Origin: Candidatus Saccharimonadota bacterium
GTDB taxonomy: Bacteria; Patescibacteriota; Saccharimonadia; Saccharimonadales; Saccharimonadaceae
Direction of reading: 5' to 3'
Assembly (NCBI GenBank): GCA_001029695.1
Contig: CP011211.1
Span: forward strand, 270,001-302,000
Length of the DNA stretch: 32,000 bases
The number at the start of each line of letters is the position of its first letter. Position 1 is the stretch's first letter. This document shows positions 2,817-22,572 of the stretch, piece by piece. The position numbers and the translations under genes are program-made. Below the pieces are notes generated by a model. It worked only from the letters and a program-made list of their open reading frames with translations, was not told the origin of the DNA and made no database searches.

Positions 2817-3539
2817 CTAGCCTTCGACCTTCGCTGTACGCCATTGCACCCAGCCGTATATTGAGTTGAGGAGAAAAACAATCCACATCGCAAGTACAGC
2901 CCAACCCTGATCTTGGTGCTGCAGTACCATCACTACCCACATAGTCACTGCGACAACATTCACGACAATCCACGCGATCCACTGCTCAGCAAATCGTCTT
3001 ACCATCAGGAGTGTCGCCGTGACAGAAAGTATAGCTGTCGCAGCATCCATACCGGGCATAGCGCCCTCTAGAACTCGTAGAAACGCTGCATATCCGACAA
3101 TTGCGGCAATCGTCGCACCGACTGTAAAGAGGCGCTGACGCGTACTAAGTGCCCGCTTGATAACATCCACAATTGCATCACCCACCTGCGAAGAACTTTT
3201 GATCCAGTAGTAGTATCCGATAAACTGCATTGGAAGAAAAACAAGTGTATAAAGAATAGTCTCACCATAGAGCTGATAGCCATACGAGACCCATGCATAC
3301 AATGCCGTCGCCACGACACCCCAGGCATAACTCGAAATCTTACCTTTAGCCACCAGAATTGCCCCTACTATACCCGTGAGCGAACTGATAAGCTCAATCA
3401 TTCCTCCACCCATAACAAGTGACGTCACAATAATTGCAAGGCTAGCTAGCACTAGCCACGCATACTCCTTTACGCTCCATCCGTAAAAATCCGTCCACAA
3501 AGTCTGCATCATCATCTTGATTGAAAAATTACTCTTCAT
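2817..3539 (-). CDS. pnuC: nicotinamide riboside transporter PnuC
   Basis: 240-aa polytopic membrane protein with PnuC-typical stretches: VAKGKISSYAWG, YQLYGE and LPMQFIGYYYW. It sits 4 nt downstream of nadR in the same orientation. Confidence 0.85.
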   Translation of the reverse strand: MKSNFSIKMMMQTLWTDFYGWSVKEYAWLVLASLAIIVTSLVMGGGMIELISSLTGIVGAILVAKGKISSYAWGVVATALYAWVSYGYQLYGETILYTLVFLPMQFIGYYYWIKSSSQVGDAIVDVIKRALSTRQRLFTVGATIAAIVGYAAFLRVLEGAMPGMDAATAILSVTATLLMVRRFAEQWIAWIVVNVVAVTMWVVMVLQHQDQGWAVLAMWIVFLLNSIYGWVQWRTAKVEG

Positions 3540-3543
3540 CGTT

Positions 3544-4578
3544 TTACTCCATTATCTTTTCTATAGCATTTACCGCTTTTTTAAATCGCTCTTCAAACGA
3601 CCCATCTATACAGACGATATTCTTCACACACCTCTCCTTGCATAGATCGAGCAACATCTGGTTTGTCATTTTTCGCTTGTCAGGACTGCCGTTTTGTCGC
3701 AGCCCGTCTGCAACCCACGGCACATCGATATCAAGGTACAGCACCAAGTCATACGATTCACGCGCAGAAAGCATCTTGAGCGTGTCACTTTCGAGTCCCA
3801 TACAAAGCGCGGAAAATTCTGTTATGAGATTATTCGTGTCTGAGAGTACAAACTTTTTTCCCGTACGCTGAGCGCGCTTCTCGGCAAGCTTATGCTCATA
3901 TGCAATCATTACGTAGTCTTGTTCGCTCATATACTTTTCTTGACTAAAGAACCGTTCCTCACATATCGTACGTCCCACTTCTGGGACAGAAACAGTGTCA
4001 AAATACTCCGCAAGATTCTTCACGAGCGTTGATTTACCCGTGCTTTCACATCCAATCACGACAATACTTTTAGTAAAATCTTTCTTCACAGCATCTGCAA
4101 GATACTCCCACTTTCCGTAGATATCATTCCGAACAGCCGTAGCAGAGATTGGTATGTTTTCTCTGTCAGCGTCGATCACAACATGTCGAGCTTCCGGGAA
4201 ATACGCGGCAAAATACTCGTCATACGTAGGCTCAGATGAAAATACCAAGTCTATGGCGTCTTCCATTTGTATATCCTGTAGCTTTGCTCGTACAAGCTTC
4301 GTAAAGTCAGCACCACCTTCGGGATATGGGTCAATCTTCGATTCATCGACGACGATAATGTGAACCTTCTTATTGTCCTTAAATGTCTCTCGCAGCCACA
4401 AATATCGGTTACGTTCACTCAGTACTAAGCTCATCCGTTCTGACTGCATATCGTTAAACTTTTGATCGTAACAAAGCACGACATACAACGCGTCAACCTG
4501 CGAAGCTGCCTGTCGCACCGCATACTCATGACCGGTCGTTAGAGGAGCAAACTTTCCTAGTAATAATCCTGTTGTCAT
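3544..4578 (-). CDS. nadR: NadR-type bifunctional NMN adenylyltransferase / ribosylnicotinamide kinase, lacking the N-terminal HTH domain
   Basis: The N-terminus GKFAPLTTGHEYAV carries the nucleotidyltransferase (H/T)xGH motif. The central VVIGCESTGKSTL is the P-loop of the kinase domain. SD GAAAGGAG lies upstream, and the gene is adjacent to pnuC. Confidence 0.85.
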   Translation of the reverse strand: MTTGLLLGKFAPLTTGHEYAVRQAASQVDALYVVLCYDQKFNDMQSERMSLVLSERNRYLWLRETFKDNKKVHIIVVDESKIDPYPEGGADFTKLVRAKLQDIQMEDAIDLVFSSEPTYDEYFAAYFPEARHVVIDADRENIPISATAVRNDIYGKWEYLADAVKKDFTKSIVVIGCESTGKSTLVKNLAEYFDTVSVPEVGRTICEERFFSQEKYMSEQDYVMIAYEHKLAEKRAQRTGKKFVLSDTNNLITEFSALCMGLESDTLKMLSARESYDLVLYLDIDVPWVADGLRQNGSPDKRKMTNQMLLDLCKERCVKNIVCIDGSFEERFKKAVNAIEKIME

Positions 4579-5829: not shown

Positions 5830-6279
5830 TTAACCGATACTTGCGTAGTGATAAATCTTTCGTTCGACAGCCTCATCCGAATCTTTAAACTCGCCCGGAT
5901 CAACAAAAGCGATCTCATCCGCATCTTCGCCGACAGTAAAATCCATTACCTCTGGGGTCACTGCAAAGATCAGCCGTACTTGCCAAAAATCATGCACTTT
6001 TGCATAGGCAGCCTCATCGACATCGATAATCTTATACGTAAAATCGCCCACGAGGCCAACTTCTTCTTTCAATTCGCGTGCAATCGCGAGCTCTATACTT
6101 TCATGGTGATCCATCCCACCGCCCGGAAGATCCCAGTAACCCCTGCCAGACTCTTTGACAACCAGTACTTTACCTTCATTGTTACGTATGAGACTCTTGA
6201 TTGAAATCCTATACAAATAGTCTGTACTCCGCGTGGAGTTTTCGTGTTCAATAGTTCCGAGAGCGTATTCTTGTGACAT
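5830..6279 (-). CDS. NUDIX hydrolase
   Basis: Nudix box GGGMDHHESIELAIARELKEEVGL (Gx5Ex7REUxEExGU). The upstream sequence TATACT-aattact-ATG suggests a leaderless start. Confidence 0.85.
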   Translation of the reverse strand: MSQEYALGTIEHENSTRSTDYLYRISIKSLIRNNEGKVLVVKESGRGYWDLPGGGMDHHESIELAIARELKEEVGLVGDFTYKIIDVDEAAYAKVHDFWQVRLIFAVTPEVMDFTVGEDADEIAFVDPGEFKDSDEAVERKIYHYASIG

Positions 6280-7939: not shown

Positions 7940-8174
7940 ATAACACCTCTTTCAAAGATCAATTCGCCCAGATCGCAAATAGGAACAGTGTAATTAATAC
8001 TATATCAGCTTATGACATGAATAGCAAGATAGGCCATTTCACATAACCCCTCGGACTAGTCGCATCTCCTATTAATAATAGTAACTGGGGTGGTGGTTTG
8101 TAACTCGTCATAATATCTACTTAACGCATGGAGCGTTGAAATATTTATAGTGATTGTTTCGTATAATGAGCATG

Positions 8175-8693
8175 ATGGAAGAAAAAGAACGCATAGCTCA
8201 AATAATATCAGGCAATACCGAAATGTATCGCACCCTCGTAGACCGATATCAAACGGGTCTCATTATCCACTGTGAAAATATCCTCAAGGATAGACAGGAC
8301 GGTGAAGATGTAGCGCAAGAAGCATTTATTAAGGCATACAAAAATTTATCAGGATTCGAGACTGAGAAAGCCAGCTTTTCTACTTGGCTATACCGTATAG
8401 CAACTAATCTTTGCATCGACATGCTTCGAAAGAACAAACGAAAAGTACATATCGAAAATATAGAGCTTCATCTTGAGGCAATACTTCCGAAACATATTGA
8501 ACAGGAAGAAGTTGAACACATCCGAAAGCTCGTATCTGAGCTCGAACCACCAAAGTACGCAGAAATCATCAAAGCTTATTTTTGGGAAGGCAAAAGCTAC
8601 CAGGAACTTGCCGACGCCTACGGCACCAGCACCGGAACCATCGGAACATGGATGAGCCGCGCGAAAACACAACTCAAGGGGAAGCTTGTATGA
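8175..8693 (+). CDS. ECF-type RNA polymerase sigma factor (sigma-70 family, group 4)
   Basis: Region 2 reads DGEDVAQEAFIKAYKNL ... FSTWLYRIATNLCIDMLRK. Region 4 reads SYQELADAYGTSTGTIGTWMSRAKTQLKGKL. The start is ambiguous (TTG 8154; ATG 8166, 8172, 8175). 8175 was chosen because TATAAT (8162..8167) + 7 nt + ATG fits the leaderless pattern. Confidence 0.85.
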   Translation: MEEKERIAQIISGNTEMYRTLVDRYQTGLIIHCENILKDRQDGEDVAQEAFIKAYKNLSGFETEKASFSTWLYRIATNLCIDMLRKNKRKVHIENIELHLEAILPKHIEQEEVEHIRKLVSELEPPKYAEIIKAYFWEGKSYQELADAYGTSTGTIGTWMSRAKTQLKGKLV

Positions 8694-9943
8694 AAGATAT
8701 AAACTTCGATACCCTCCTACTAGCTGCCAAGCCAGATCGCTTTTCGGGTGACGCTCAATTTACAGATACGGTTATGCAAAAAGTACAGGATTCTGAAATA
8801 TTATCGTCTACCGTTCGTACTATGAATGTCAATAAAAAGGAGACATTCATTATGAAATTTAAGCATCTGCCGAGAATCGCTATTGTAGCAATCGCAGTAG
8901 GCGCATTGGTTATTGTTTCAACCAGTGCATATGCCGCATATCAATTATTTTGGGCAAAACCTGAAGTGCACATTTTAGAATCGAAAACATCTGTAAGTGG
9001 ACGAGACGAAGTGATACTTTCAACTTCCGGGTGCGACACTGCAAGTTCTACACGATCTGAGCTCAAAAAGGGCGCAACGATTGGAGCAGATCGCATCAGC
9101 GACGTGATACAAGCACACTGCGAGCTACAGGCAATTGAGAATTGGGCTAATCGATCATATGGAGATAAGGCGATGCCCGACCTAGACAGCCTAATAATCG
9201 ACAGCAAGCCGGTCAAACAAACCATTGTTGTTGCATCTATAGCCACGCATCTACAAGCAAAGCAAGGAAACTCATTTACGTTTGCCGGCATAGATACATA
9301 CGGTTGGCCTAAAAGTACACTAAAAGCTGACAACCACGTGAAATATATTGTTGATGGCAAAAATTCAATAGCCGATAAGATAAAAGAAGGTGATCCTGTG
9401 GTCTACGTCGCGACGGGCAATATCACAATGACCCGGAGCCAGGATGGAGGTATCGATGCAGACAATCATCCTAGTCGTACTCTCGTTGCCGTAATAAAAC
9501 TGTCTATGCCTTTTGAAAATTACGACCAACTTGCACGGCAATCATTATCCAAGCGAGAGACATGCTATGGGAATCCAAATGACGATTGTGTTGCAAATGG
9601 AGCATCAATCGACCTGTACACAGGTGGCGGCAATGCCGGGATTTCAGGCAATATGATCATGAGAGAAATCCAAGGAAAAGTTGTCGGACTCAATGGAAAC
9701 AAAACCTCAATCCGATCTTCTAGCGGGACCGTATTTACCGTTACAACACCCACGGATGTAATATCAGATTACAACACGAACAAAGCTGGGCGCTATTACG
9801 ACAATCAGAAGGTAGTAATAGGGAGCAATATCAGCGTAAAATATGTTGACGATAAAGATGCGCAAACTACTGAAATATCAGCGGCATATATGCTATTCCA
9901 GATAGAACTCGTCAGCAAACAAGACCCAACAAAGGCATACTAA
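8690..9943 (+). CDS. putative anti-sigma factor: single-pass membrane protein with a ~330-aa extracytoplasmic domain of unknown fold
   Basis: The ATG at 8690 overlaps the sigma stop (ATGA) and is preceded by SD AAGGGGAAG. A short cytoplasmic N-terminus is followed by a TM helix (IAIVAIAVGALVIVSTSAYAAY). The track start at 8582 lies inside the sigma gene and was rejected. Confidence 0.55.
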   Translation: MKDINFDTLLLAAKPDRFSGDAQFTDTVMQKVQDSEILSSTVRTMNVNKKETFIMKFKHLPRIAIVAIAVGALVIVSTSAYAAYQLFWAKPEVHILESKTSVSGRDEVILSTSGCDTASSTRSELKKGATIGADRISDVIQAHCELQAIENWANRSYGDKAMPDLDSLIIDSKPVKQTIVVASIATHLQAKQGNSFTFAGIDTYGWPKSTLKADNHVKYIVDGKNSIADKIKEGDPVVYVATGNITMTRSQDGGIDADNHPSRTLVAVIKLSMPFENYDQLARQSLSKRETCYGNPNDDCVANGASIDLYTGGGNAGISGNMIMREIQGKVVGLNGNKTSIRSSSGTVFTVTTPTDVISDYNTNKAGRYYDNQKVVIGSNISVKYVDDKDAQTTEISAAYMLFQIELVSKQDPTKAY

Positions 9944-12509: not shown

Positions 12510-13022
12510 TTATTTTGCTGCCCGAAGAATCGCGACATCTCGTTTGGACATAAATACAATTCCAATGTCTACGTGTGTTACCCTAGACTCAATCAACCTG
12601 ATCGCCTCATCTAAATTATCGATCCATTGCACTTCAAATCCTTTATCAATTTCACCCTGGGTGAAATCTGGCTCACCTGGTTCACCCTCTAACGACGCTT
12701 TATATGCATACGAAATTTGCTTCATCTTATCAAAATCTCGCCATTCCAGTACTTGGCCTAAAACTTCGGTAACGGTAGCTTTCGAACCCGTCTCTTCTAA
12801 GAGCTCCCTCCTTAGTGCAGCATCTAGACTCTCACCTTCATCAACGCCACCGCCAGGTAGTTTGTAATAGTCACCCTGCCTGACATACATTAAAGCAATA
12901 CGTCCAAAATCGTCACCCAGAACTGCTCTTACCGCCTTTCGCACGTAGTAGCTATCTCTTTCGTCTATTTTTACCGACGAGTCCATTTCATGCTGGTCGA
13001 GTAGTAGAATTGTATTATTCAT
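12510..13022 (-). CDS. NUDIX hydrolase
   Basis: Nudix box GGGVDEGESLDAALRRELLEETG. The upstream sequence TGCTATGAT-atagaat-ATG suggests a leaderless start. Confidence 0.85.
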   Translation of the reverse strand: MNNTILLLDQHEMDSSVKIDERDSYYVRKAVRAVLGDDFGRIALMYVRQGDYYKLPGGGVDEGESLDAALRRELLEETGSKATVTEVLGQVLEWRDFDKMKQISYAYKASLEGEPGEPDFTQGEIDKGFEVQWIDNLDEAIRLIESRVTHVDIGIVFMSKRDVAILRAAK

Positions 13023-13082: not shown

Positions 13083-13157
13083 TGGCTGGGGTGGAGGGAT
13101 TCGAACCCCCGAATGCTGGTACCAGAAACCAGTGCCTTACCACTTGGCGACACCCCA
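13083..13157 (-). tRNA. tRNA-Gln (anticodon CUG), CCA-encoded
   Basis: The reverse complement is TGGGGTG TC GCCA AGTGGTA AGGC A CTGGT TTCTGGT ACCAG CATTC GGGGG TTCGAAT CCCTC CACCCCA G CCA. It folds as a full cloverleaf with a T-loop TTCGAAT and anticodon loop TT-CTG-GT. It resembles E. coli tRNA-Gln as recalled from memory. Confidence 0.9.
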
Positions 13158-13326: not shown

Positions 13327-13878
13327 CTACGCTTTTTCGGTTTTTTCGTCAGAAGCTAGCGTTGCGGCTTTTGGTTTAGGAGATTTTTTAGAAACTTTCA
13401 CCTCATAGTACTCACGAATTTCATACAGGAAGTAGAGGCCGACGAGTGCACTTATAAGCGCACCAAGTAGACCACTGAGACTTACGGTAAGTATAATGTT
13501 TGCGACATTTGAGACGATCCCTAGAATCACCGCGAGGAATAAATAATCCCAACCTTTTTTCTCCTGATCTTTCAGTGGCTGCACGGCGAGGCCAGTAATG
13601 ACCGAGATAGCAACCAAGAAAGCAAGCGATAAAATCGATGCAAAAAAGAATATACCACTAAGCGTCGTTACAATCGGCCCGGCAAAGATTGCAACGAGCG
13701 CACCTGCACCAAAGAGCACAAATAGCCCAGGAAGGACCGTCACAGCTCCAACAATAGCTCCGATAAGTGCTATCCACCAAACATTTTCAAACAACCATAC
13801 TCGACCACCCTGTGGCAAATGCGGTACATCCTTAAACCACTGCGCAATTGCACCCTCTAGTTTATGCAACGATTCCAT
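13327..13878 (-). CDS. hypothetical polytopic membrane protein (183 aa)
   Basis: Track ORF with four to five hydrophobic helices and a Lys-rich C-terminal tail. No motif recognised. Confidence 0.6.
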   Translation of the reverse strand: MESLHKLEGAIAQWFKDVPHLPQGGRVWLFENVWWIALIGAIVGAVTVLPGLFVLFGAGALVAIFAGPIVTTLSGIFFFASILSLAFLVAISVITGLAVQPLKDQEKKGWDYLFLAVILGIVSNVANIILTVSLSGLLGALISALVGLYFLYEIREYYEVKVSKKSPKPKAATLASDEKTEKA

Positions 13879-13935: not shown

Positions 13936-14460
13936 CTACGGCTTACGTGAGCGTGCAGCCTTGGCCTTCTGCGAGCCTGATGGCCACATACCCCAAGCAG
14001 ACCATACCGCGAGAACGAAAAGTGCCATCGTCAACAGTACCGCCCACCATCCCACGGGGAGTGAGACCTTTACTCCAAGAAGTCCTATATTATCCAGTAC
14101 ATTGTCCGTAACGTTCGCCCATACAGACAGAAAAATCCATATAAACGCTACGACAATACCCGCATACATACTCACCCACCTCATTAATGGACTAAGTTGC
14201 ATACGGAGAAGGAACGGTAACGCAAATACCTCCAGCGTTACGATAAGTCCAGCGAGCAGCGTAGCAAGTACTGCACTACCCGGCAGCCAAAAACTCTGCA
14301 GTAGCGGTATAAACTTCTCAAAACCATACAACTGTCCAACTGCCATCAGCACTAATAATCCAGCATACACCAGTGCTACAATTCGAACATTTTCGGTCTT
14401 AGGCTCAGAAGGAGGAGTTGTTTGTACAAATAAGCTCATGCCTACAATTATAACACTCAA
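13936..14460 (-). CDS. hypothetical 4-5 TM membrane protein (weak DoxX/MauE-like appearance)
   Basis: Track ORF with hydrophobic helices throughout and a basic C-terminus. The family assignment is only an impression. Confidence 0.55.
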   Translation of the reverse strand: MSVIIVGMSLFVQTTPPSEPKTENVRIVALVYAGLLVLMAVGQLYGFEKFIPLLQSFWLPGSAVLATLLAGLIVTLEVFALPFLLRMQLSPLMRWVSMYAGIVVAFIWIFLSVWANVTDNVLDNIGLLGVKVSLPVGWWAVLLTMALFVLAVWSAWGMWPSGSQKAKAARSRKP

Positions 14461-14659: not shown

Positions 14660-15313
14660 TTAGTCAGCTTTAAAAGAGTTGTCGGCACGCCATTGAGCGA
14701 TACGCGCATGATTACCGCTCAAGAGCACTCCTGGCACCTTCATACCCTCAAACTCTTCCGGACGAGTATACTGAGGGAACTCAAGCGTTTCACCATCGCT
14801 AAAGCTCTCGATTGCAGCACTCGTCTCACCGCCAAGTACGCCAGGGATAAGTCGTACGATACTATCAATAATCGTCATAGCGGGCAATTCACCCCCTGTC
14901 AGGACATAGTCGCCGACACTCACCTGTTCATCTACAAGCGTGACGATACGCTCGTCGTACCCCTCGTAGCGGCCACATATGAATATGTACCCTTCGCCAC
15001 TATCAGCCCACTGCTGAGCAAGCGATTGCTTCCAGCGCTGACCGCGAGGAGTCATTAAGAGCACTTTCGCTGTCGGATCATTCTCTTTCGCCTTAGCCAC
15101 TGCTGCAAACAATGGCTCCGGCTTGAGTAGCATGCCATCGCCACCGCCATAGGGGGTGTCGTCGACAGTGCGCCTCGGACCTAGGCCAAACTCACGAAGA
15201 TCGATCGTACTGAGCTGTACGATCTCATCTTTTTGGGCCTTCCACATCATAGAATTCTCAAACACACCCGTAAACATTTCGGGAAAAAGAGTAATGACTT
15301 GCAACTTTCTCAT
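14660..15313 (-). CDS. trmD: tRNA (guanine37-N1)-methyltransferase TrmD
   Basis: ITLFPEMF, DDTPYGGGDGMLL, ICGRYEGYDERI and SVGDYVLTGGELPAM are hallmark TrmD blocks. Confidence 0.92.
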   Translation of the reverse strand: MRKLQVITLFPEMFTGVFENSMMWKAQKDEIVQLSTIDLREFGLGPRRTVDDTPYGGGDGMLLKPEPLFAAVAKAKENDPTAKVLLMTPRGQRWKQSLAQQWADSGEGYIFICGRYEGYDERIVTLVDEQVSVGDYVLTGGELPAMTIIDSIVRLIPGVLGGETSAAIESFSDGETLEFPQYTRPEEFEGMKVPGVLLSGNHARIAQWRADNSFKAD

Positions 15314-15320
15314 CTGTTAC

Positions 15321-15349
15321 AGTGTACGCTATATTGACTTATTTGTAAA
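15321..15349 (-). promoter_or_regulatory. trmD promoter (TTTACA-17-TACACT), 7 nt from the ATG (leaderless)
   Basis: Minus sense: TTTACA aataagtcaatatagcg TACACT gtaacag ATG. It overlaps the divergent + strand promoter. Confidence 0.55.
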
Positions 15350-15362
15350 TATCTGCTATAAT
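15334..15362 (+). promoter_or_regulatory. near-consensus sigma-70 promoter of island gene A
   Basis: TTGACT - 17 nt - TATAAT, with an extended -10 TGCTATAAT. Confidence 0.7.
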
Positions 15363-15398
15363 AAAGACGTACGCCTTCACCCCACGAAAGCGGTAGCC

Positions 15399-15713
15399 AT
15401 GAGCTTAGCACTAAGCGTCAACAGTCTACAAAATGGGTCATACGTCGCCATCGTCCTGCCGAAGCCGCACGAAGTACATTACTCTCAAGTGGTAGAGGTT
15501 CACCCTGATGGCTTCGTCCTGAGAGGGCAGAGCGACCTGCTCTTGCCGATCAAAGATATGCAAGAGCTGATATCCGCCAGGTGCGTACATGTCTACAGCT
15601 CACAGGCAGATCTGCCTCCAGCATTCAAAGCACGAATCGATTGGGCGAAGCTCATCGAGACCATCAGTGACGGCTACGCTGACTTACAGAAGCAGGCGCT
15701 ACGCAACACTTAG
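15399..15713 (+). CDS. island gene A: hypothetical protein (104 aa)
   Basis: The ATG at 15399 is the first start downstream of the promoter. The track start at 15156 lies antisense inside trmD and was rejected. No motif recognised. Confidence 0.5.
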   Translation: MSLALSVNSLQNGSYVAIVLPKPHEVHYSQVVEVHPDGFVLRGQSDLLLPIKDMQELISARCVHVYSSQADLPPAFKARIDWAKLIETISDGYADLQKQALRNT

Positions 15714-15764
15714 CTCATCAAAGAAAGCTCGCCGTAGAAGCTAAAATCGCTTTTACAGGCTTGA

Positions 15765-15788
15765 GCTCCTTCGGTGGGCTTTCTTTTT
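15765..15788 (+). terminator. probable terminator after island gene A
   Basis: GCTCC-ttcg-GTGGGC (one bulge) followed by TTTCTTTTTG. It is also enclosed by a 9-bp long-range pairing, AAAGAAAGC (15720) / GCTTTCTTT (15778). Confidence 0.5.
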
Positions 15789-15865
15789 GTTGTATAGTAT
15801 ACGTAAATATTATATAGTGACAGTAACTTTCCGTAGAAAGACGCACCTATCGATAGGAGAATCTC

Positions 15866-16210
15866 ATGTATTCTGACCCAATCATCTCGGGAATTGTCTA
15901 TAAAGATCATCACTTTAAAGATCAATTCGATCAAAGAGAAGATGCTCGGACAGTGGCCCTGCGTCAAGCCGCCGCATATCGTAGAGACATGGGCAGCGCC
16001 CTCGTCCTACTGGGCTTGATCGCGCTTACAGCCTATTTCCTAGAGGCTCTGTCATCTACCCTATTCCTACTCTGGCTGATCATTTGGCTCTTTAGCTCGG
16101 ACAATGTCAGTAGTCTGTGGTTTCACCCACTAAAGGCTTATAAGCTGGCAAGACTCTGGAAGCTCGAAGCAGGACGACAGCAATACATGATCAACCACCC
16201 TTATACATAA
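15866..16210 (+). CDS. island gene B: hypothetical small membrane protein (114 aa, 2 TM)
   Basis: SD AGGAGA lies 6 nt upstream of the ATG. There are two hydrophobic helices (ALVLLGLIALTAYFL, LFLLWLIIWLF). Confidence 0.55.
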   Translation: MYSDPIISGIVYKDHHFKDQFDQREDARTVALRQAAAYRRDMGSALVLLGLIALTAYFLEALSSTLFLLWLIIWLFSSDNVSSLWFHPLKAYKLARLWKLEAGRQQYMINHPYT

Positions 16211-16340
16211 GCCCGAGCCCTCGAAGACTTACGTAGTCGCTCGAGAAATTACTCGGGCGACAACCAGGCATATTTTCTCTGATGATATCTCTGGCTGTTT
16301 CAAAAACGCGAGTAGGCGCCTCTGCGTATACTCTGGCAAT

Positions 16341-16370
16341 TTGACATATTCGCCGAAACAGAGATAATAT
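16341..16370 (+). promoter_or_regulatory. sigma-70-like promoter of island gene C
   Basis: TTGACA - 17/18 nt - ATAATA/TAATAT. Confidence 0.6.
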
Positions 16371-16417
16371 ATTAACTATACACAGCCGTGTATAGCACCT
16401 TCAACAGAGGAAATGTT

Positions 16418-16678
16418 ATGAACGACACTCCATCGTCTGCAAAGGCATCGGAAGTCGTCAGTCAGGTAGAGCAATCGGCGACAGCCCTTGCACTCGAGCA
16501 ACTACAGAAGCACTATCCCCTCGTCACAGCGGATGATATCAATCTGCAAGCGCTCTGGCTTTTACTGCTCATCACTGAGTTTGCGCTTGAAGTACGGCAT
16601 GATGTCGGTCTAGTTCAGCTAGACCAAGATGGTAATGCGCTCGCTGGCACACCAGCGAGAATATCTCTTCCGCAGTAA
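16418..16678 (+). CDS. island gene C: hypothetical protein (86 aa)
   Basis: ATG at 16418 with SD GAGGAAA (the track start at 16388 is an in-frame upstream GTG). No motif recognised. Confidence 0.5.
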   Translation: MNDTPSSAKASEVVSQVEQSATALALEQLQKHYPLVTADDINLQALWLLLLITEFALEVRHDVGLVQLDQDGNALAGTPARISLPQ

Positions 16679-16718
16679 GGAGTCGCCCAGGCACCTCAAT
16701 ACGCCACATCCAGTTGGC

Positions 16719-16751
16719 ACTCCGCATCTAAGCCATAGATGCGGAGTTTTT
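16719..16751 (+). terminator. rho-independent terminator after island gene C
   Basis: ACTCCGCATCT-aagccat-AGATGCGGAGT followed by TTTT. Confidence 0.8.
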
Positions 16752-16772
16752 AATATATACTCTAAAATATAA

Positions 16773-16802
16773 TTGACTTTTTGTATATAAATATATTATT
16801 AT
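16773..16802 (+). promoter_or_regulatory. sigma-70-like promoter of island gene D (very short or no leader)
   Basis: TTGACT - 18 nt - TATTAT. The ATG at 16813 lies 10 nt after the -10, with no SD. Confidence 0.55.
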
Positions 16803-16812
16803 ATACATCATT

Positions 16813-18246
16813 ATGCGCCCATACACAAAATTCGAAAACCCTGTTGCTCTTCACAGAAATGAACACACCGTAAACAAAACCGTCGAAACTCTCTCGGATA
16901 AGAATTATACTCTCAGTAACTACGCAGTTACTCTCGACACCGCCACAGCCCAGTCTATAGGTGACGCAATCACGCGGAGAGATATCAACGGCGTTACCCG
17001 TCCTTTCAAGGATACCCTCAATGCAATTAGTCGTGAGTTTTCAGAGGCCGATCTCAGTGAGTCGCGTGAGGCGATCGAGACTGCCCTACAGGAGCGCCTA
17101 CCTTCATCCCCTAGTAGCCTTCTCGATACACTAACCGACACCAACTCTCGAAATGAACTGTACAATGCGATGCTTGAGACGAACGATCAAACTGAAGATA
17201 ACATCGGACTCACGCGTGCAGAGTACATGCGCCTTCTAGAAACGATCGTTATAGCCGAAACACCTGATAGTATTGATCTTTCGAACAAATATCGCGACAA
17301 TCCCGGCAAGTATCGGGATAAAAAGGCGAGTTTGTATTCCCGAGCACTGACAACACTTGATATATTCGCGACAAACGAGCCAGGTCTTCGCCCTGTTCGC
17401 GAAGGAATGCTCGAAGAAAATTCGAGCGCCTTAGCTGAATTTCTTCAACGCGAATCAAGTCGACGCGTCGCTCAAGACATCCTGAGCGATCACTTTGATT
17501 CGATTCAGCAGGGTACAGCCCTTAGCAAAAAAGCCGAGCTTCGCTATCTTATCGATGAAGACGAACAGCAAGGTGATATTGAAAAATTCCAAATCCTTGA
17601 GTGGACTATGCTTCCAGGAGATGAAGAGTCACGTGAGTCAACTCGCGCTTCCATTCGACGCTCCGTAAAGGCAAATCTCAAAAAGCAGTCGCTAGAAGAC
17701 TGGGACGAAAGTCGTGTCGACCTCCTCTTTGAAGTTGCCGATATCGGACATAAAAATGGCCGTCAACCAGAAGTATATATATCCAACACCTTCAAAAGCA
17801 ACGCAGGTGTCTACCTCGCTGTTTCACTCACCCACCCCCAAGACCCCAATAAGCGTATCGTACTAGCCGACAACCCACTCTACGGCAATGCTATCTATTT
17901 CGTAGATGAAATGCTTACCGAAAGAAGCCCCTCTACAGACACACCGTATAACTGGCGAGAAGTTATGGTCGAAAGCAAACAGGAAGCCCGTCGTCGCGGC
18001 GCATCACGCAGAGTGCACGTCGGTGAATGGGAGGACTTTGCTTACAAAATCTGTAGCTATGAAGGAAAACCGAAGGAAGAAGCTCCAACGACATTTGAAA
18101 CCCCGATCAGTCCTTGTGAGTACGAGTATCAATCAGAGCATAAAGCAGATAGCAACACCGAAATGTCAGATGCAGATCGAGCAATTGCACGCGCCGATAC
18201 CGCACTGCGCGTAGCACGCGAACTGCTCACTAGACTTAGTTCATAG
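16813..18246 (+). CDS. island gene D: hypothetical acidic protein (477 aa)
   Basis: A long track ORF with no competing ORF, Asp/Glu-rich. No catalytic or binding motif was recognised by eye. Confidence 0.6.
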   Translation: MRPYTKFENPVALHRNEHTVNKTVETLSDKNYTLSNYAVTLDTATAQSIGDAITRRDINGVTRPFKDTLNAISREFSEADLSESREAIETALQERLPSSPSSLLDTLTDTNSRNELYNAMLETNDQTEDNIGLTRAEYMRLLETIVIAETPDSIDLSNKYRDNPGKYRDKKASLYSRALTTLDIFATNEPGLRPVREGMLEENSSALAEFLQRESSRRVAQDILSDHFDSIQQGTALSKKAELRYLIDEDEQQGDIEKFQILEWTMLPGDEESRESTRASIRRSVKANLKKQSLEDWDESRVDLLFEVADIGHKNGRQPEVYISNTFKSNAGVYLAVSLTHPQDPNKRIVLADNPLYGNAIYFVDEMLTERSPSTDTPYNWREVMVESKQEARRRGASRRVHVGEWEDFAYKICSYEGKPKEEAPTTFETPISPCEYEYQSEHKADSNTEMSDADRAIARADTALRVARELLTRLSS

Positions 18247-18259
18247 TAGTTCAATGATA

Positions 18260-18288
18260 TTGACTATACTTTAGATACATGTTACAAT
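18260..18288 (+). promoter_or_regulatory. near-consensus sigma-70 promoter of island gene E
   Basis: TTGACT - 17 nt - TACAAT, starting 14 nt after the gene D stop. There is no terminator between D and E. Confidence 0.65.
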
Positions 18289-18374
18289 AGTACTCATGTC
18301 AGGATTAGTCTCTTCGGAAAGCTAATCTTCGCACGTACCTACATTCATTCCCTATCGACGAAAGTGATACGACA

Positions 18375-19388
18375 ATGGCACAAATTGATAGCGATATTTT
18401 ACGCCTCCTCGAAGAGCGAGGACCAATCCATGCCAAGGGCGCGATGATCTTCAGCGACATACGACAAACGCTTGGACGAGAAAAAAGTTCTCAGTCCAAC
18501 GATAACGCCATCACGAAGGCTATCGCCAGGATGGAAAACAAGAAGTCGATCGTCGTGAAGCGGAGAGGCAGACGAATACTTTCGATATGCCTGCCGGAAT
18601 GCTCGAAAAACAATGATGCATCGCAGACATCCGCCCAGAAGGAAGAGACAGTCACCAAGAAGGAAGGTGCACGAGCAATCGTGCTAACGGCTGCCCTTAG
18701 GCGCCTTCAGGAAGTGGCTGACGAAAATGGCGTGATTATCTTCCAAGCTGGAGGATATGTCGTCACACGACTACTCAGTGCAGTCAAAGGAATTCCAGAG
18801 GGAAGTGCAGTCTACAGGCTAGCCCAGCTCAAGGAGCTTGGACTAGTAGCATACGACGGCGCACCTCGGAAAGTAACCGTCACACGTGAAATCACTGAAG
18901 TTACCGTCGAAATGGTACGAGGAGAAAAAATGACTACCATTGAAAAGCCCTCTCATTACACCGAGAGTTCAGCTAGGTCGATTATCGACACCCCTCAGCC
19001 AACACCTGCTATCAGTCCAGAGGAGACGATCGAGCAATTCGTTGCAATCATTGAACAACTTGAAAGTCAGGTTGACGATGAAAAGCGTAGAGCGGACGCC
19101 GCTCTACAGGAACTCAGTAGCGCCCGTGAAGACGTGGCTGCTATGGAAGAACGCATCGTCGCCATCGTCCGAGAAAAGGACGAAGCTGTCGCCGAAACCT
19201 CCAGGGTAGTCACCAAGCTCAACGACGTAACTTCGAGGTTCGAAGAACTCACACGAGCACACACTGAGGTCGCGGACAATCTCGCAGCAGCAGAGTCGCT
19301 GCTCGCTGAGTGCGAAACTCAGCGAGCAGCTCAGGTAAGTGAGCGAGCAGCCAAGGTGCTCGAAAGATATGGAATGAAAAAAAGCTAG
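18375..19388 (+). CDS. island gene E: putative DNA-binding protein with two winged-helix-like modules and a C-terminal Ala/Glu-rich coiled coil (337 aa)
   Basis: The N-terminus DILRLLEERGPIHAKGAMIFSDIRQTL ... KKSIVVKRRGRRILSICL looks like a wHTH. A second similar unit is GSAVYRLAQLKELGLVAYDGAPRKVTVTRE. The last ~110 aa show heptad-like Ala/Glu/Arg repeats. Confidence 0.55.
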   Translation: MAQIDSDILRLLEERGPIHAKGAMIFSDIRQTLGREKSSQSNDNAITKAIARMENKKSIVVKRRGRRILSICLPECSKNNDASQTSAQKEETVTKKEGARAIVLTAALRRLQEVADENGVIIFQAGGYVVTRLLSAVKGIPEGSAVYRLAQLKELGLVAYDGAPRKVTVTREITEVTVEMVRGEKMTTIEKPSHYTESSARSIIDTPQPTPAISPEETIEQFVAIIEQLESQVDDEKRRADAALQELSSAREDVAAMEERIVAIVREKDEAVAETSRVVTKLNDVTSRFEELTRAHTEVADNLAAAESLLAECETQRAAQVSERAAKVLERYGMKKS

Positions 19389-19402
19389 CATGCCTAGCGC
19401 CC

Positions 19403-19430
19403 ACTCCGCACCCACAAGGTGCGGAGTTTT
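19403..19430 (+). terminator. rho-independent terminator ending the island
   Basis: ACTCCGCACC-cacaa-GGTGCGGAGT followed by TTTCTTT. It shares the ACTCCGCA...TGCGGAGTTTT arms with the terminator at 16719. Confidence 0.8.
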
Positions 19431-19462
19431 CTTTCGTGCAAGCATGTTTTATAAAAGCCACC

Positions 19463-19488
19463 AAAAAACCACCCCAAAAGGGATGGTT
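19463..19488 (-). terminator. rho-independent terminator of the KH-protein gene
   Basis: Minus sense: AACCATCCC-tttt-GGGGTGGTT followed by TTTTTGG (one mismatch in the stem). Confidence 0.7.
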
Positions 19489-19581
19489 TCTCGGACATAT
19501 AAGGCTCTCAACAATATATTGTTGCTCGCATAGAGCTTTTGGTCTCGCAGTTGAAGGAATTACCCTTCGAACTGTTTATGA

Positions 19582-20164: not shown

Positions 20165-20515
20165 TTACTCTGCTGATTCTTCAGCTGGTGCTTCTTCTTT
20201 TGGCTGGTTCTTGCGAAGCTTTTCAGCATTACGGATAGCTTTTTGCTTATCAGTGCTCGCATCTTTAACCCACTTTGGAAGTGCAACGCCAGCGTCCTTG
20301 AGGAGCTTGACGACACGAGGAGAAGGTTGAGCACCGTTGTTGAGGTACTTCTGCGCTTCTTCTACCTGAACTTTTGATTCTTTAGTGTGTGGGTTGTAGC
20401 TACCAACATAAGCAACCACGCGACCACTACTTGGGTGACGTTGTGCTTCCTGGACAGCTAGTCGGTACACAGGGTAACCCTTACGACCGACACGTTGCAA
20501 ACGAATTGCGAGCAT
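20165..20515 (-). CDS. rpsP: 30S ribosomal protein S16
   Basis: MLAIRLQRVGRKGYPVYRLAVQEAQRHPSSGRVVAYVGSYNPHTKE is the canonical S16 N-terminus. SD AAGGAAG lies upstream. Confidence 0.95.
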   Translation of the reverse strand: MLAIRLQRVGRKGYPVYRLAVQEAQRHPSSGRVVAYVGSYNPHTKESKVQVEEAQKYLNNGAQPSPRVVKLLKDAGVALPKWVKDASTDKQKAIRNAEKLRKNQPKEEAPAEESAE

Positions 20516-20936: not shown

Positions 20937-21642
20937 TCCGTGCCTCATACGCGTTAAGCGCCGCCTTTGCTGCCTCTTGCTGTGCGTGCTGCTTACTCGG
21001 TCCACTCCCCTTGCCCATCATCGTGTCACCGACATATACCCCAAGGGTGAAGATTTTGTCATGGTCAGGCCCAACTTCTTCAAGTACTCGGTAAACCGGC
21101 GTATGATTGTCGATACGCTGAGACACTTCTTGGAGGTGCGACTTTGGATCGCGCCAGCTGCCTGTTTCTAGGATCGTATCAAGCTTACTGAGAATATGCT
21201 TCTTGATAAACGCATCTGCATCGTCATAGCCACGTTCTAGATAGATAGCGCCAATCACCGCCTCGAACGCGTTTGCAAGAATCTGCTGACGCGCACGTTG
21301 ACTACCGTTTTTTTCACCGCGACTCATACGGAGTAGCGGCTCATAGCCGAGTTTATCACCCGCTTCACCGATACTTTCGGTACGCACGAGTGATGATCGC
21401 CAGCTAGTCAAAATACCCTCTGGCTCACTGTGGTTGTTGAACAAATAATCCGTGACAGAAAGCTCAAGTACAGCATCACCGAGGAACTCAAGTCGCTCAT
21501 TGTGCTCATTGACACTCTTTTTATGTTCATTGACATAACTACGGTGCGTCAATGCCGTTACAAGAAGATTGATATCTTTAAATTCATACCCGAATGTCTC
21601 ACGGGCAAAATCTTGATAGGGGGTGACTTGCATACCACTCAT
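20929..21642 (-). CDS. rnc: ribonuclease III
   Basis: RNase III signature NERLEFLGDAVLELSVTDYLF, and a C-terminal dsRBD (GKGSGPSKQHAQQEAAKAALNAY). Confidence 0.93.
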   Translation of the reverse strand: MSGMQVTPYQDFARETFGYEFKDINLLVTALTHRSYVNEHKKSVNEHNERLEFLGDAVLELSVTDYLFNNHSEPEGILTSWRSSLVRTESIGEAGDKLGYEPLLRMSRGEKNGSQRARQQILANAFEAVIGAIYLERGYDDADAFIKKHILSKLDTILETGSWRDPKSHLQEVSQRIDNHTPVYRVLEEVGPDHDKIFTLGVYVGDTMMGKGSGPSKQHAQQEAAKAALNAYEARNV

Positions 21643-22133
21643 AAGTTTTCTTGTCGTATCCTTTTCATGGCAAGCAGCATAAGCTTACCGATATCTTCAT
21701 ATTCTATAACATCAATTGCATCGTGAAATTTAAACCACTTAATGTCATTCATCCACTCTTCCTTCTGGATCGCGTCAGTGTCGCCAAGTGCCCGCACGAG
21801 ATAGATTTGGGTTGTCATGAGGACAAGTTTGTCGATACGGCGATAACGGAAGTGGATTTTGCCAAGCCAGCCAAGCACTTCGGTCTCTTTAAGACCTGCT
21901 TCTTCGCCAATTTCACGCTTTGCGGTCTGTTGAGCTGTCTCACCTTCTTCGATATGACCTTTTGGAATCGTCCAACGATCTTTTGCGTCTTGGATCAAAA
22001 GAATTTCGACACCACCTTTTTCGTCACGACGAAATACAATGCCACCAGCTGTTGGCTCACGGACAATTTCCTGAATAGACGGCTTGCGGCGATTAAAATA
22101 CTGCTTGAACTTATTAAACTTCGGCGCTGGCAT
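21639..22133 (-). CDS. NUDIX hydrolase embedded in the nusB-rnc operon
   Basis: Nudix box GHIEEGETAQQTAKREIGEEAGL. ATG at 22133 with SD GGAGGA 8 nt upstream (the track start at 22172 is further inside nusB). Its stop overlaps the rnc start (ATGA). Confidence 0.8.
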   Translation of the reverse strand: MPAPKFNKFKQYFNRRKPSIQEIVREPTAGGIVFRRDEKGGVEILLIQDAKDRWTIPKGHIEEGETAQQTAKREIGEEAGLKETEVLGWLGKIHFRYRRIDKLVLMTTQIYLVRALGDTDAIQKEEWMNDIKWFKFHDAIDVIEYEDIGKLMLLAMKRIRQENL

Positions 22134-22572
22134 CTGGTTGTTCCTCCACAAGCGTTCGATACGCTGTGCCAAGCACGCCGTTTATGAACTTGCTTGAATT
22201 GTCAGAACCAAACGCTTTTGCAAGCTCTACCGCTTCGTTGATCGCCACCTTTGGAGGGACTTGATCTTTACGATATAGCAGTTCGAACAATCCAAGTCGA
22301 AGGACATTGCGGTCAATGCGAGCGATCTGCTCAATTGGCCATTCTGGAGCAAGCGGACGAATCCGATTATCGAGGTCCTCTTGAGCGGCGATAACGCCGT
22401 GCACGAGCTCGGTAACGAAACTTGTATCGTCAATCTCTTCGCTATAACGTTCAAGATTGCGCTCTAAAATTTCGTCAATAACAACAGACGTATCTTCCGA
22501 TTGTGTACGAAACTCAAATTCATACAGCGATTGGAGTGCAACAATCCTACCTAGGTGACGATTTGATGCCAT
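22114..22572 (-). CDS. nusB: transcription antitermination factor NusB
   Basis: RIVALQSLYEFEF ... RIDRNVLRLGLFELLY ... PPKVAINEAVELAKAFGSDNSSKFINGVLG matches the NusB pattern. Confidence 0.87.
   Translation of the reverse strand: MASNRHLGRIVALQSLYEFEFRTQSEDTSVVIDEILERNLERYSEEIDDTSFVTELVHGVIAAQEDLDNRIRPLAPEWPIEQIARIDRNVLRLGLFELLYRKDQVPPKVAINEAVELAKAFGSDNSSKFINGVLGTAYRTLVEEQPDASAEV

Follow-up and report, generated by a model that had tools for sequence, protein, structure and literature searches.

A clade-specific gene cassette in the variable spacer between the KH gene and trmD of a Saccharibacteria genome

Introduction

We analysed a 32,000-nucleotide stretch of a Candidatus Saccharimonadota bacterium (GenBank assembly GCA_001029695.1, contig CP011211.1, positions 270,001 to 302,000; hereafter the window, with positions counted from its first letter), in which an island of five opposite-strand genes, A to E, lies between trmD and a KH-domain gene. 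The island is a clade-specific cassette in an ancient, variable and promoter-equipped spacer of an operon which was already split and which already lacked rimM. The cassette belongs to the window species and two relatives, and comprises two variable small genes (A and B), a clade-specific acidic gene (C) and a conserved operon of two larger genes (D and E). A small number of Saccharibacteria lineages inherit the D-E pair, with the chromosomal address differing among them, and the pair is under purifying selection. Because the same pair sits at other addresses, we regard it as a relocated, clade-restricted pair, rather than a recent mobile insertion or a replacement of rimM. Taken as a whole, the locus is probably best explained by such a pair occupying a variable slot, with products that may be associated with DNA.

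These results bear on how such loci are read. Saccharibacteria normally have what looks like a 'broken core operon', and the missing rimM, the separate trmD transcript and the variable spacer should not be taken as insertion damage. A conserved divergent promoter with changing cargo offers a small, concrete example of how genes are accommodated in very reduced genomes. The D-E pair, for its part, is a defined gene-pair family: the confident predicted structure of D has no known relatives, the conserved motif is clear, and purifying selection is strong. About half of the genes in these genomes are uncharacterised, and conserved pairs such as D-E are reasonable entry points for experimental work.

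Layout of the locus

The genes of the island and its flanks are as follows, with lengths in amino acids (aa) and isoelectric points (pI).

14660..15313, minus strand: trmD, tRNA m1G37 methyltransferase, left flank (Pfam tRNA_m1G_MT, E=1.7e-52)
15399-15713, plus strand: gene A, 104 aa, a soluble orphan present in the window species only
15866-16210, plus strand: gene B, 114 aa, predicted membrane protein, with an AGGAG ribosome-binding site
16418-16678, plus strand: gene C, 86 aa (96 aa if translated from a GTG at 16388), acidic (pI 4.3)
16813-18246, plus strand: gene D, 477 aa, cytoplasmic, acidic (pI 4.9), no hydrophobic segment
18375-19388, plus strand: gene E, 337 aa
19582..19974, minus strand: KH gene (KhpA/YlqC type), right flank (Pfam KH_KhpA-B, E=6.2e-22)
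20165..20515, minus strand: rpsP, ribosomal protein S16 (Pfam Ribosomal_S16, E=2e-13)

A preliminary description of this DNA, made from the sequence alone, had reported an opposite-strand island of open reading frames (ORFs) of 104, 114, 86, 477 and 337 aa, none of which it could place in a known family. The ORF map agrees, with all five ORFs on the plus strand between the minus-strand trmD and KH genes, and none of the five proteins has a significant match in Pfam, NCBIfam, PHROGs or PADLOC. In public records all five are named 'hypothetical protein [Candidatus Saccharibacteria bacterium]', and the identical 477-aa D protein is found on contigs of Candidatus Saccharibacteria assemblies, e.g., GCA_003508055.1. 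The island and its flanks are also without a match in Rfam at E <=1. Orphan genes are the norm in this genome, as about 15 of the roughly 32 other ORFs of the window likewise have no Pfam match, and orphan genes in variable slots are common in genomes of the Candidate Phyla Radiation (CPR). The island had been put forward as the window's best candidate for an undescribed system; this stands for D and E, an uncharacterised conserved pair in which D has no structural neighbour, but it loses force as orphans are common in the window.

The operon was split before the island arose

Species-representative genomes contain at least 588 relatives of TrmD, and those listed are nearly all from Saccharibacteria; a scan of such genomes seeded with TrmD gave 80 loci, nearly all labelled Saccharibacteria, with TrmD 63-86% identical to that of the window. 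Across the more than 80 related loci, numbered here with the prefix L, this identity is 63-93%. The gene order nusB-nudix-rnc-rpsP-KH-trmD is kept in relatives and is followed by two membrane proteins, and the reduced ancestral layout is nusB-nudix-rnc-rpsP-KH as one block with trmD apart from it.

Neither rimM nor rplS belongs to this cluster. With Escherichia coli RimM as the tblastn query there was no match in the window or in 89 related loci; E. coli L19 matched neither the window nor any Saccharibacteria-labelled locus, and its sole match was in L078, a locus labelled Nomurabacteria. The RimM and Ribosomal_L19 Pfam families likewise had no match among the scanned ORFs of the window. Since neither gene flanks trmD in Saccharibacteria-labelled loci, their absence is a trait of the lineage and not an effect of the island. 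The preliminary description correctly found both genes missing from the window, but in listing this as a consequence of the island it overlooked a state shared by the Saccharibacteria-labelled relatives.

In the 68 of 80 loci that hold both KH and trmD, the gap between them ranges from 121 bp to 2.3 kb, and the spacer carries unrelated ORFs on either strand. The cargo found there is listed below.

An inositol-monophosphatase-like gene
A GNAT-like gene
A CPBP-like membrane protease
A TM2-like protein
A 583-aa orphan
Numerous small ORFs
Proteins of 110-160 aa that form one family and carry a hydrophobic anchor at the C terminus, in eight loci

Three signals of the window frame this spacer; they come from a consensus scan for promoters and a hairpin scan for terminators.

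15321..15349, minus strand: trmD promoter-like site TTTACA-17-TACACT, ending 8 nt before the ATG
15334..15362, plus strand: divergent promoter-like site TTGACT-17-TATAAT with a TG extension, 11/12 positions, which would drive A
19461..19494, minus strand: KH terminator-like hairpin of 15 pairs with a T-run

All three have counterparts in relatives. Where the 60 nt upstream of trmD were inspected (26 loci), a -10 box (TACACT, TATAAT, TACAAT or similar) lies 7-8 nt before the trmD ATG in nearly all loci, which implies a leaderless trmD mRNA, and the promoter-like site is also present in L005 and L009. A G+C-rich hairpin with a T-run stands right behind KH in L020, L035, L039, L044, L050, L059, L077 and L082, in which the gap is about 120-200 bp and there is no island. 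Because they are present in relatives with such short gaps, the KH terminator and the trmD promoter predate the island, and the operon was split before the island arose. The claims that KH had gained its own terminator through the island, and that the leaderless trmD promoter was a consequence of it, are thus not borne out.

The trmD promoter does physically overlap the first island promoter, as had been described, the two -35 elements lying back to back at 15321-15362. This pair, 'atatTTTACAaaaaaGTCAAta' (TTTACA for trmD and TTGACT on the opposite strand), is kept in L011, L013, L016, L033, L047 and L064, and in reduced form in L060, and the cargo behind it differs from locus to locus. The first 'island' promoter therefore also predates the island. 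The class already transcribes rpsP-KH and trmD as distinct units, and the spacer between them is a permissive slot, often with a ready-made divergent promoter. The back-to-back -35 region acts much as a fixed expression slot would, with cargo that can be exchanged.

Two known arrangements help to place this layout. In common with the canonical rpsP-khpA(ylqC)-rimM-trmD-rplS operon, the locus has rpsP, KH and trmD in canonical order and orientation; unlike it, the Saccharibacteria cluster has rimM and rplS outside, a terminator after KH, and a trmD with its own leaderless promoter even in loci without the island. The spacer also resembles flexible genomic islets, in that its conserved flanks are syntenic in more than 60 species, while its content of 0.12-4.4 kb consists of unrelated, mostly orphan genes without mobility genes. 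It departs from them in that the variable cargo of many species lies behind a conserved divergent promoter adjoining that of trmD, and in that the largest cargo holds a gene pair which is conserved elsewhere in the class.

A recent mobile element or prophage remnant could in principle have broken an rpsP-KH-rimM-trmD operon, displaced rimM and rplS, and forced new signals upon KH and trmD. The island's orientation opposite to its flanks, its own promoters and terminators, its mildly deviant composition and its absence at the trmD site from the 80 other species all fit such an event. Yet RimM is missing in most CPR genomes (PMC6744442), the site is without rimM or rplS in Saccharibacteria-labelled relatives, and the supposedly forced signals are there in relatives with a gap of 120-200 bp. 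The island is moreover old, D being only 50% identical between carrier lineages, and traces of mobility are lacking. No recombinase, integrase or transposase family matches A-E, the neighbouring called genes are housekeeping genes or encode membrane proteins, there are no flanking direct repeats at the island boundaries, and the sole tRNA (Gln, 13083-13157) lies 2 kb outside the island. Relatives of D were likewise absent from IMG/VR viral contigs, GenBank phages and PLSDB plasmids. This account is largely refuted, and we consider it very improbable.

It is barely credible that one or more of the island proteins are a non-orthologous substitute for RimM, kept at the old rimM position. What speaks for this is position, as the island sits where rimM does elsewhere, near the RNA-related genes KH, trmD and rnc. 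Around 70 Saccharibacteria species, however, lack rimM and have no relative of C, D or E at the site, and in other lineages D-E stands behind groEL or before dnaX. The island genes are oppositely oriented and independently transcribed, and Pfam gave no RimM or PRC-barrel similarity for A-E. Homology of an island protein to RimM or L19, a possibility raised in the preliminary description, was found neither by Pfam nor by tblastn.

Extent, age and stability of the island

A comparable island occurs at the trmD site only in the window species and two relatives, found via three distant D homologues, and profiles of C, D and E gave no match within +/-10 kb of trmD in any of the 80 loci. The two relatives compare with the window as follows.

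L005-L008 (GCA_032153715.1): TrmD 93% and KH 92% identical; gap of 4.4 kb with a 52-aa membrane peptide, a 129-aa hydrophobic protein, a C-like protein (89 aa), D (488 aa) and a 336-aa protein
L009: TrmD 88% and KH 93% identical; gap of 4.0 kb with a C-like protein (91 aa), D (497 aa) and a 402-aa protein

Among these three lineages D is about 50% identical, so the island is old relative to the divergence of the species. Such a value is not unusual for the non-housekeeping genes of this genome, since the two membrane proteins beside trmD are only 55% and 39% identical between the window and L005, while TrmD is 93% identical. Within the window species, island genes are present on all eight retrieved contigs (L001-L004 and L104-L107) within the span that these contigs cover. 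The earlier suggestion of inserted DNA or a lineage-specific module therefore stands insofar as this is extra DNA of a narrow clade, and falls where it supposed insertion damage to core genes. Universal presence in the lineage with host-like features was found for this narrow clade only, the island being absent from this site in the 80 other loci.

Selection was assessed by comparing the window with three other strains at 95-100% nucleotide identity, in terms of synonymous and non-synonymous changes and of the ratio between their rates (pN/pS).

D: 5-13 synonymous, 1-3 non-synonymous, pN/pS 0.06-0.09
E: 14-16 synonymous, 12 non-synonymous, pN/pS 0.24-0.27
A, B and C: 0-1 synonymous and 0-4 non-synonymous each

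D is thus under strong purifying selection. In a separate observation, the A-C stretch (15399-16678) is 98.6-100% identical to L104-L106, above trmD, rnc and the membrane genes (95-98%), for which a recent recombination or a sweep is a possible cause.

The D-E pair at other addresses

Outside the trmD slot, D-family loci were found in the following contexts.

Directly after groES-groEL, as a D-E pair: L090-92, L096, L098, L099, L100/L102
Upstream of dnaX-dnaB, as a D-E pair: L095, L109
Next to a ribonucleotide-reductase-like gene, as a D-E pair: L108
Context not recoverable, D-family locus: L103

The groEL-proximal pair occurs in at least five other lineages, and the keeping of this position at a D identity of only about 30-45% indicates long vertical inheritance. 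Of the window's genes, only a sigma factor was matched in the groEL-type genomes. In every groEL, dnaX or L108-type case with downstream sequence, D is followed on the same strand by a protein of 257-365 aa. These E-type partners align as one family, with a first domain, a linker, a second domain, a further linker, a coiled coil and a tail of the form ..VLxRYGxK. A profile built from the groEL- and dnaX-clade partners, leaving out the window, L005 and L009, matched the E protein of the window over its full length at E=3.3e-19.

An exhaustive profile search with the D alignment recovered 19 representatives of the D family among 1.84e9 cluster representatives, ten of which are full-length (450-490 aa), and a word-indexed profile search with the same alignment added one further protein only. 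Thirteen aligned members share the invariant residues of the signature ADNP..GNAxYxVDE..W.EV..AR.RGA.R.YH. The AlphaFold2 model of D, made from a 21-sequence alignment, has a mean predicted local distance difference test score (pLDDT) of 84.1 and a predicted template modelling score (pTM) of 0.60; an earlier model from 4 sequences (pLDDT 64.6) was too poor, and its Foldseek result was meaningless. In the later model an all-helical N-terminal domain (around residues 10-246) and a poorly modelled linker precede an alpha/beta domain with helices at 271-314, a four-strand meander at 320-365, and short helices and a strand up to about 414. After a disordered stretch, the protein ends in an amphipathic helix (453-476).

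The conserved C-terminal alpha/beta domain (about 295-415) carries almost all of the invariant residues, namely R317, S324, F327, Y334, H341, D353-N354-P355, N359-A360-x-Y362, D365-E366, W381, A392-R393, G396-A397, R399, H402 and W406, and it also occurs as stand-alone proteins of 106-154 aa. Foldseek with the D model gave no match at E <=0.001 in the PDB (best 0.36, template modelling score (TM) <=0.13) or in BFVD, the D sequence profile found nothing significant in the PDB, and Pfam, applied to the 21 members of the D family and the 10 of the E family, returned coiled-coil noise only. D and E belong to no described family.

Distant D-like proteins occur without E. One of them (L093 2024-3529, P0021; 501 aa) is encoded on the opposite strand between ruvB and ruvA, a second case of the D family splitting a classically co-directional gene pair, and another (L110) precedes tsaD. 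In a 625-aa protein (L097 1400-3277, P0016), a C-terminal domain distantly similar to that of D is fused to a long C-terminal coiled coil that resembles the E tail, and this fusion is a possible clue to an interaction between D and E. A 311-aa protein upstream of D in L099 had been considered as a D paralogue; it was dropped, as the D profile does not detect it.

The E protein of the window has a first domain (1-75, pI 10.3), a linker, a second domain (about 101-185, pI 8.3), a further linker, an acidic coiled coil (about 216-325) and the tail ..VLERYGMKK. Its C-terminal third is acidic (pI 4.6) and scores as coiled coil, against SMC models (E=2.7e-4) and many coiled-coil PDB chains. PDB profile searches with E and with each of its two domains gave no significant match for the globular domains. 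Their best resemblances, all sub-threshold, are to winged-helix proteins, with E values of 0.018 for MCM4_WHD, 0.028 for GntR (3ihu), about 1 for PadR, 0.28 for SmtB, 0.38 for RepA_N and 0.45 for a MarR-like protein. E therefore appears to consist of two winged-helix-like domains and a coiled coil.

Compared with known winged-helix proteins (GntR, PadR, ArsR/SmtB and MarR, and RepA_N), E shares basic N-terminal domains, with its best sub-threshold matches at the recognition-helix and wing parts. It differs in having no significant match, in combining tandem domains with a long C-terminal coiled coil and the ..VLxRYGxK tail, and in always being paired with D. L005 and L009 encode mutually related proteins at the E position (E=2.5e-10). 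Both (L005 11565-12575 and L009 6312-7520) have Cys/His clusters (e.g., HCCTCDPQDC and CDH...CPQC) where the E of the window has its first domain, and this domain may have been replaced there.

A possible role for the pair

We tentatively propose, with rather less than even confidence and from the protein sequences and the D model, that an E dimer binds nucleic acid and that D is docked on it in a stable DNA-associated complex. E would dimerise through its C-terminal coiled coil and bind nucleic acid through its two basic winged-helix-like domains. D would dock on E, for which the distant D-like protein fused to a coiled-coil tail is weakly suggestive, and the invariant Arg, His, Asp, Asn, Glu and Tyr of D's alpha/beta domain resemble an active site or a ligand-binding site. 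With a conserved, strong and near-leaderless promoter driving its expression, D would then form with E a stable, chromosomally inherited DNA-associated complex of a nucleoid-associated or regulatory kind. D is taken as the partner of E because the two genes are strictly adjacent, there is no terminator between them, and one D-like protein carries a fused coiled coil. We favour a DNA-associated complex over a defence or mobile module because there is no strain-level variation in presence or absence, and because five lineages keep the pair near groEL despite deep divergence.

Several points weigh against this reading. The spread of the family is sporadic, with about 10-19 D clusters against at least 588 TrmD relatives in species-representative genomes, D-E stands at four or more genomic positions, and divergence is very rapid in E and in the N-terminal half of D; a conflict or accessory system would account for these three features no less well. 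In tetranucleotide composition the island deviates more strongly than any other 4.3-kb segment of the window (distance 0.224 against 0.175 +/- 0.017), and this, with the lower divergence of A-C between strains, suggests that its history may differ from that of its flanks. Its GC content is only slightly raised (0.48 against 0.463). The winged-helix assignment of E draws on sub-threshold matches (best E=0.018-0.03), charge and a reading of the alignment, and that D is an enzyme or a ligand-binding protein is a guess from its pattern of conservation. The E profile, furthermore, fails to recognise the proteins at the E position of L005 and L009.

D-E, or the whole island, could instead be an accessory conflict module (anti-phage defence, toxin-antitoxin-like, or an epibiont-host factor), in which E would be a DNA-binding sensor or autoregulator and D an effector, and which would spread among Saccharibacteria into permissive intergenic sites. 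Beyond the number of its positions and the deviant composition with low A-C divergence, such a module would account for the rarity of the family (19 representatives in 1.84e9 proteins, and none within +/-10 kb of trmD in the 80 species loci), for the distant D-like gene that splits ruvB from ruvA on the opposite strand, and for the rate of divergence, with D at 50% identity and E at most 27% where TrmD is 93%. It sits poorly with the lack of any PADLOC, PHROGs or Pfam match, PADLOC giving nothing for A-D and only coiled-coil-type matches for E (E >=0.0036, 7-14 bits). Nor are there relatives on phages, plasmids or viral contigs, mobility genes or repeats, or presence/absence variation among the eight contigs of the species. 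With five lineages keeping a groEL-proximal pair at only about 30-45% D identity, and with D under strong purifying selection, we consider a conflict module unlikely.

The DNA-associated pair can be taken a step further. D-E may be an undescribed, CPR-specific two-protein system in which E, a tandem-winged-helix and coiled-coil dimer, recruits a new-fold enzyme D to DNA, as novel nucleoid or chromosome-maintenance machinery of ultra-small epibiotic cells or as a novel conflict system; this is speculative, and we regard it as somewhat unlikely. If it were true, the KH-trmD spacer with its back-to-back promoter would be a general 'expression slot' for acquired genes in Saccharibacteria.

An analogy with kleisin-KITE pairs (ScpA-ScpB, MukF-MukE, MksF-MksE/JetA-JetB) was tried and set aside. 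The D and E genes are adjacent and co-oriented as in those pairs, and presumably, as a lead only, share with them the order of a larger, mostly helical protein followed by a smaller, tandem winged-helix-like one. The analogy fails on the points tested: D has no kleisin-like fold match, its Foldseek result in the PDB (best E 0.36, TM <=0.13) coming from a library which we take to include MukF and ScpA, and neither the window species nor the other D-E loci have an SMC-type ATPase gene within +/-10 kb. E also differs from KITE proteins in its coiled coil of about 110 residues, which they do not have, and the sole PADLOC JetA match (E=0.019) falls within this coiled coil.

Promoters and terminators within the island

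The remaining signals between A and the KH gene, all on the plus strand, are listed here.

15763..15781, plus strand: weak terminator-like hairpin after A, followed by a T-run (hairpin scan)
16341..16370, plus strand: promoter-like site before C, TTGACA-16-GATAAT (11/12) or TTGACA-18-TAATAT (10/12)
16719..16747, plus strand: intrinsic-terminator-like hairpin after C, arms ACTCCGCA/TGCGGAGT, then TTTT
16773..16802, plus strand: D promoter-like site TTGACT-18-TATTAT, ending 10 nt before the D start codon
18260..18288, plus strand: promoter-like site before E, TTGACT-17-TACAAT with TG, window species only
19403..19427, plus strand: intrinsic-terminator-like hairpin after E, its arms identical to those of the hairpin after C

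The consensus scan recovered all four promoters that had been described for A, C, D and E (15334, 16341, 16773 and 18260); these are the region's best plus-strand matches, at 10-11 of 12 positions, and no site above the scan threshold precedes B. In all, the region has 19 promoter-like sites against 8.2 +/- 2.9 in shuffles. The D promoter, whose distance of 10 nt from the start codon implies a near-leaderless mRNA, is kept in position and sequence in L005 (9962-9990) and L009 (4659-4687), so that the three trmD-slot lineages have TTGAC[T/C]-17/18-TATTAT 10-11 nt before the ATG. The promoter before E has no equivalent at that place in L005 or L009, and no terminator stands between D and E in any lineage.

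Two terminators with common arms had been described at 16719 and 19403, and the arms ACTCCGCA...TGCGGAGT do occur exactly twice in the window (0 occurrences in 100 shuffles). In the relatives the positions of these terminators are kept and the sequences changed (after C in L005, and after E in L005 and L009). The hairpins that bracket D-E, with identical 8-nt arms and a T-run but differing loops, are found in the window species only, and gene conversion, duplication or chance are possible origins of the identical arms. That the arms are a conserved operator or att site was rejected, as unrelated hairpins stand at the same places in L005 and L009. The hairpin after A (CCACTCCTTCGGTGG GCTTTCTTTT) also stands behind the first small gene in L005.

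The small genes

C-like proteins are found in the three island-bearing lineages only. The 89-aa protein of L005 and the 91-aa protein of L009 match each other at E=1.4e-8 to 1.6e-8, and that of L009 matches the C of the window at E=0.011.

A and B have no detectable relatives outside the window species, and in L005 their places are taken by the 52-aa membrane peptide (for A) and by the 129-aa hydrophobic protein (at the B position), the latter without detectable similarity to B. A especially, and possibly B, could be chance ORFs or decaying remnants behind the conserved divergent promoter. The few changes between strains are mostly non-synonymous (1-3 against 1 synonymous in A, too few for a selection test, and 3-4 against 1 in B), and A has a poor ribosome-binding site and is the only gene with clearly atypical G+C content at third codon positions (GC3; 0.63 against a host mean of 0.44 +/- 0.04). 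However, each has a promoter or ribosome-binding site before it and a hairpin after it, and the ORFs are intact in all sampled strains, with clusters at >=90% identity of 8 members for A (all named hypothetical) and 20 for B. B also has a clear membrane-like hydrophobic stretch in the hydropathy profile (about residues 41-77). On balance, chance or decay seems to us a fairly improbable origin for these ORFs.

Other genes of the window

Away from the island, a gene for a PnuC-type nicotinamide mononucleotide transporter (2817-3539) adjoins a NadR-like gene with cytidylyltransferase-like and AAA_28 domains (3544-4578), and the two (2817-4578) look like a pair for the salvage of nicotinamide adenine dinucleotide. 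The window holds three separate NUDIX genes (5830-6279, 12510-13022 and 21639-22172), as well as a sigma-70 gene of the extracytoplasmic function type (8154-8693) that overlaps the start of a 453-aa orphan ORF (8582-9943), with which it may form a sigma/anti-sigma pair.

The two membrane protein genes 3' of trmD (13327-13878 and 13936-14460) are syntenic in many Saccharibacteria and very fast-evolving. Beyond them the strains differ: the window has tRNA-Gln (13083-13157) and then a NUDIX gene, L104 (1-626) and L106 (1-627) have the end of a 499-aa large serine recombinase with Resolvase and Recombinase domains, and L105 (1-583) encodes an AAA_15/AAA_21 ATPase. These differences suggest an integration spot, at or near tRNA-Gln, that varies between strains.

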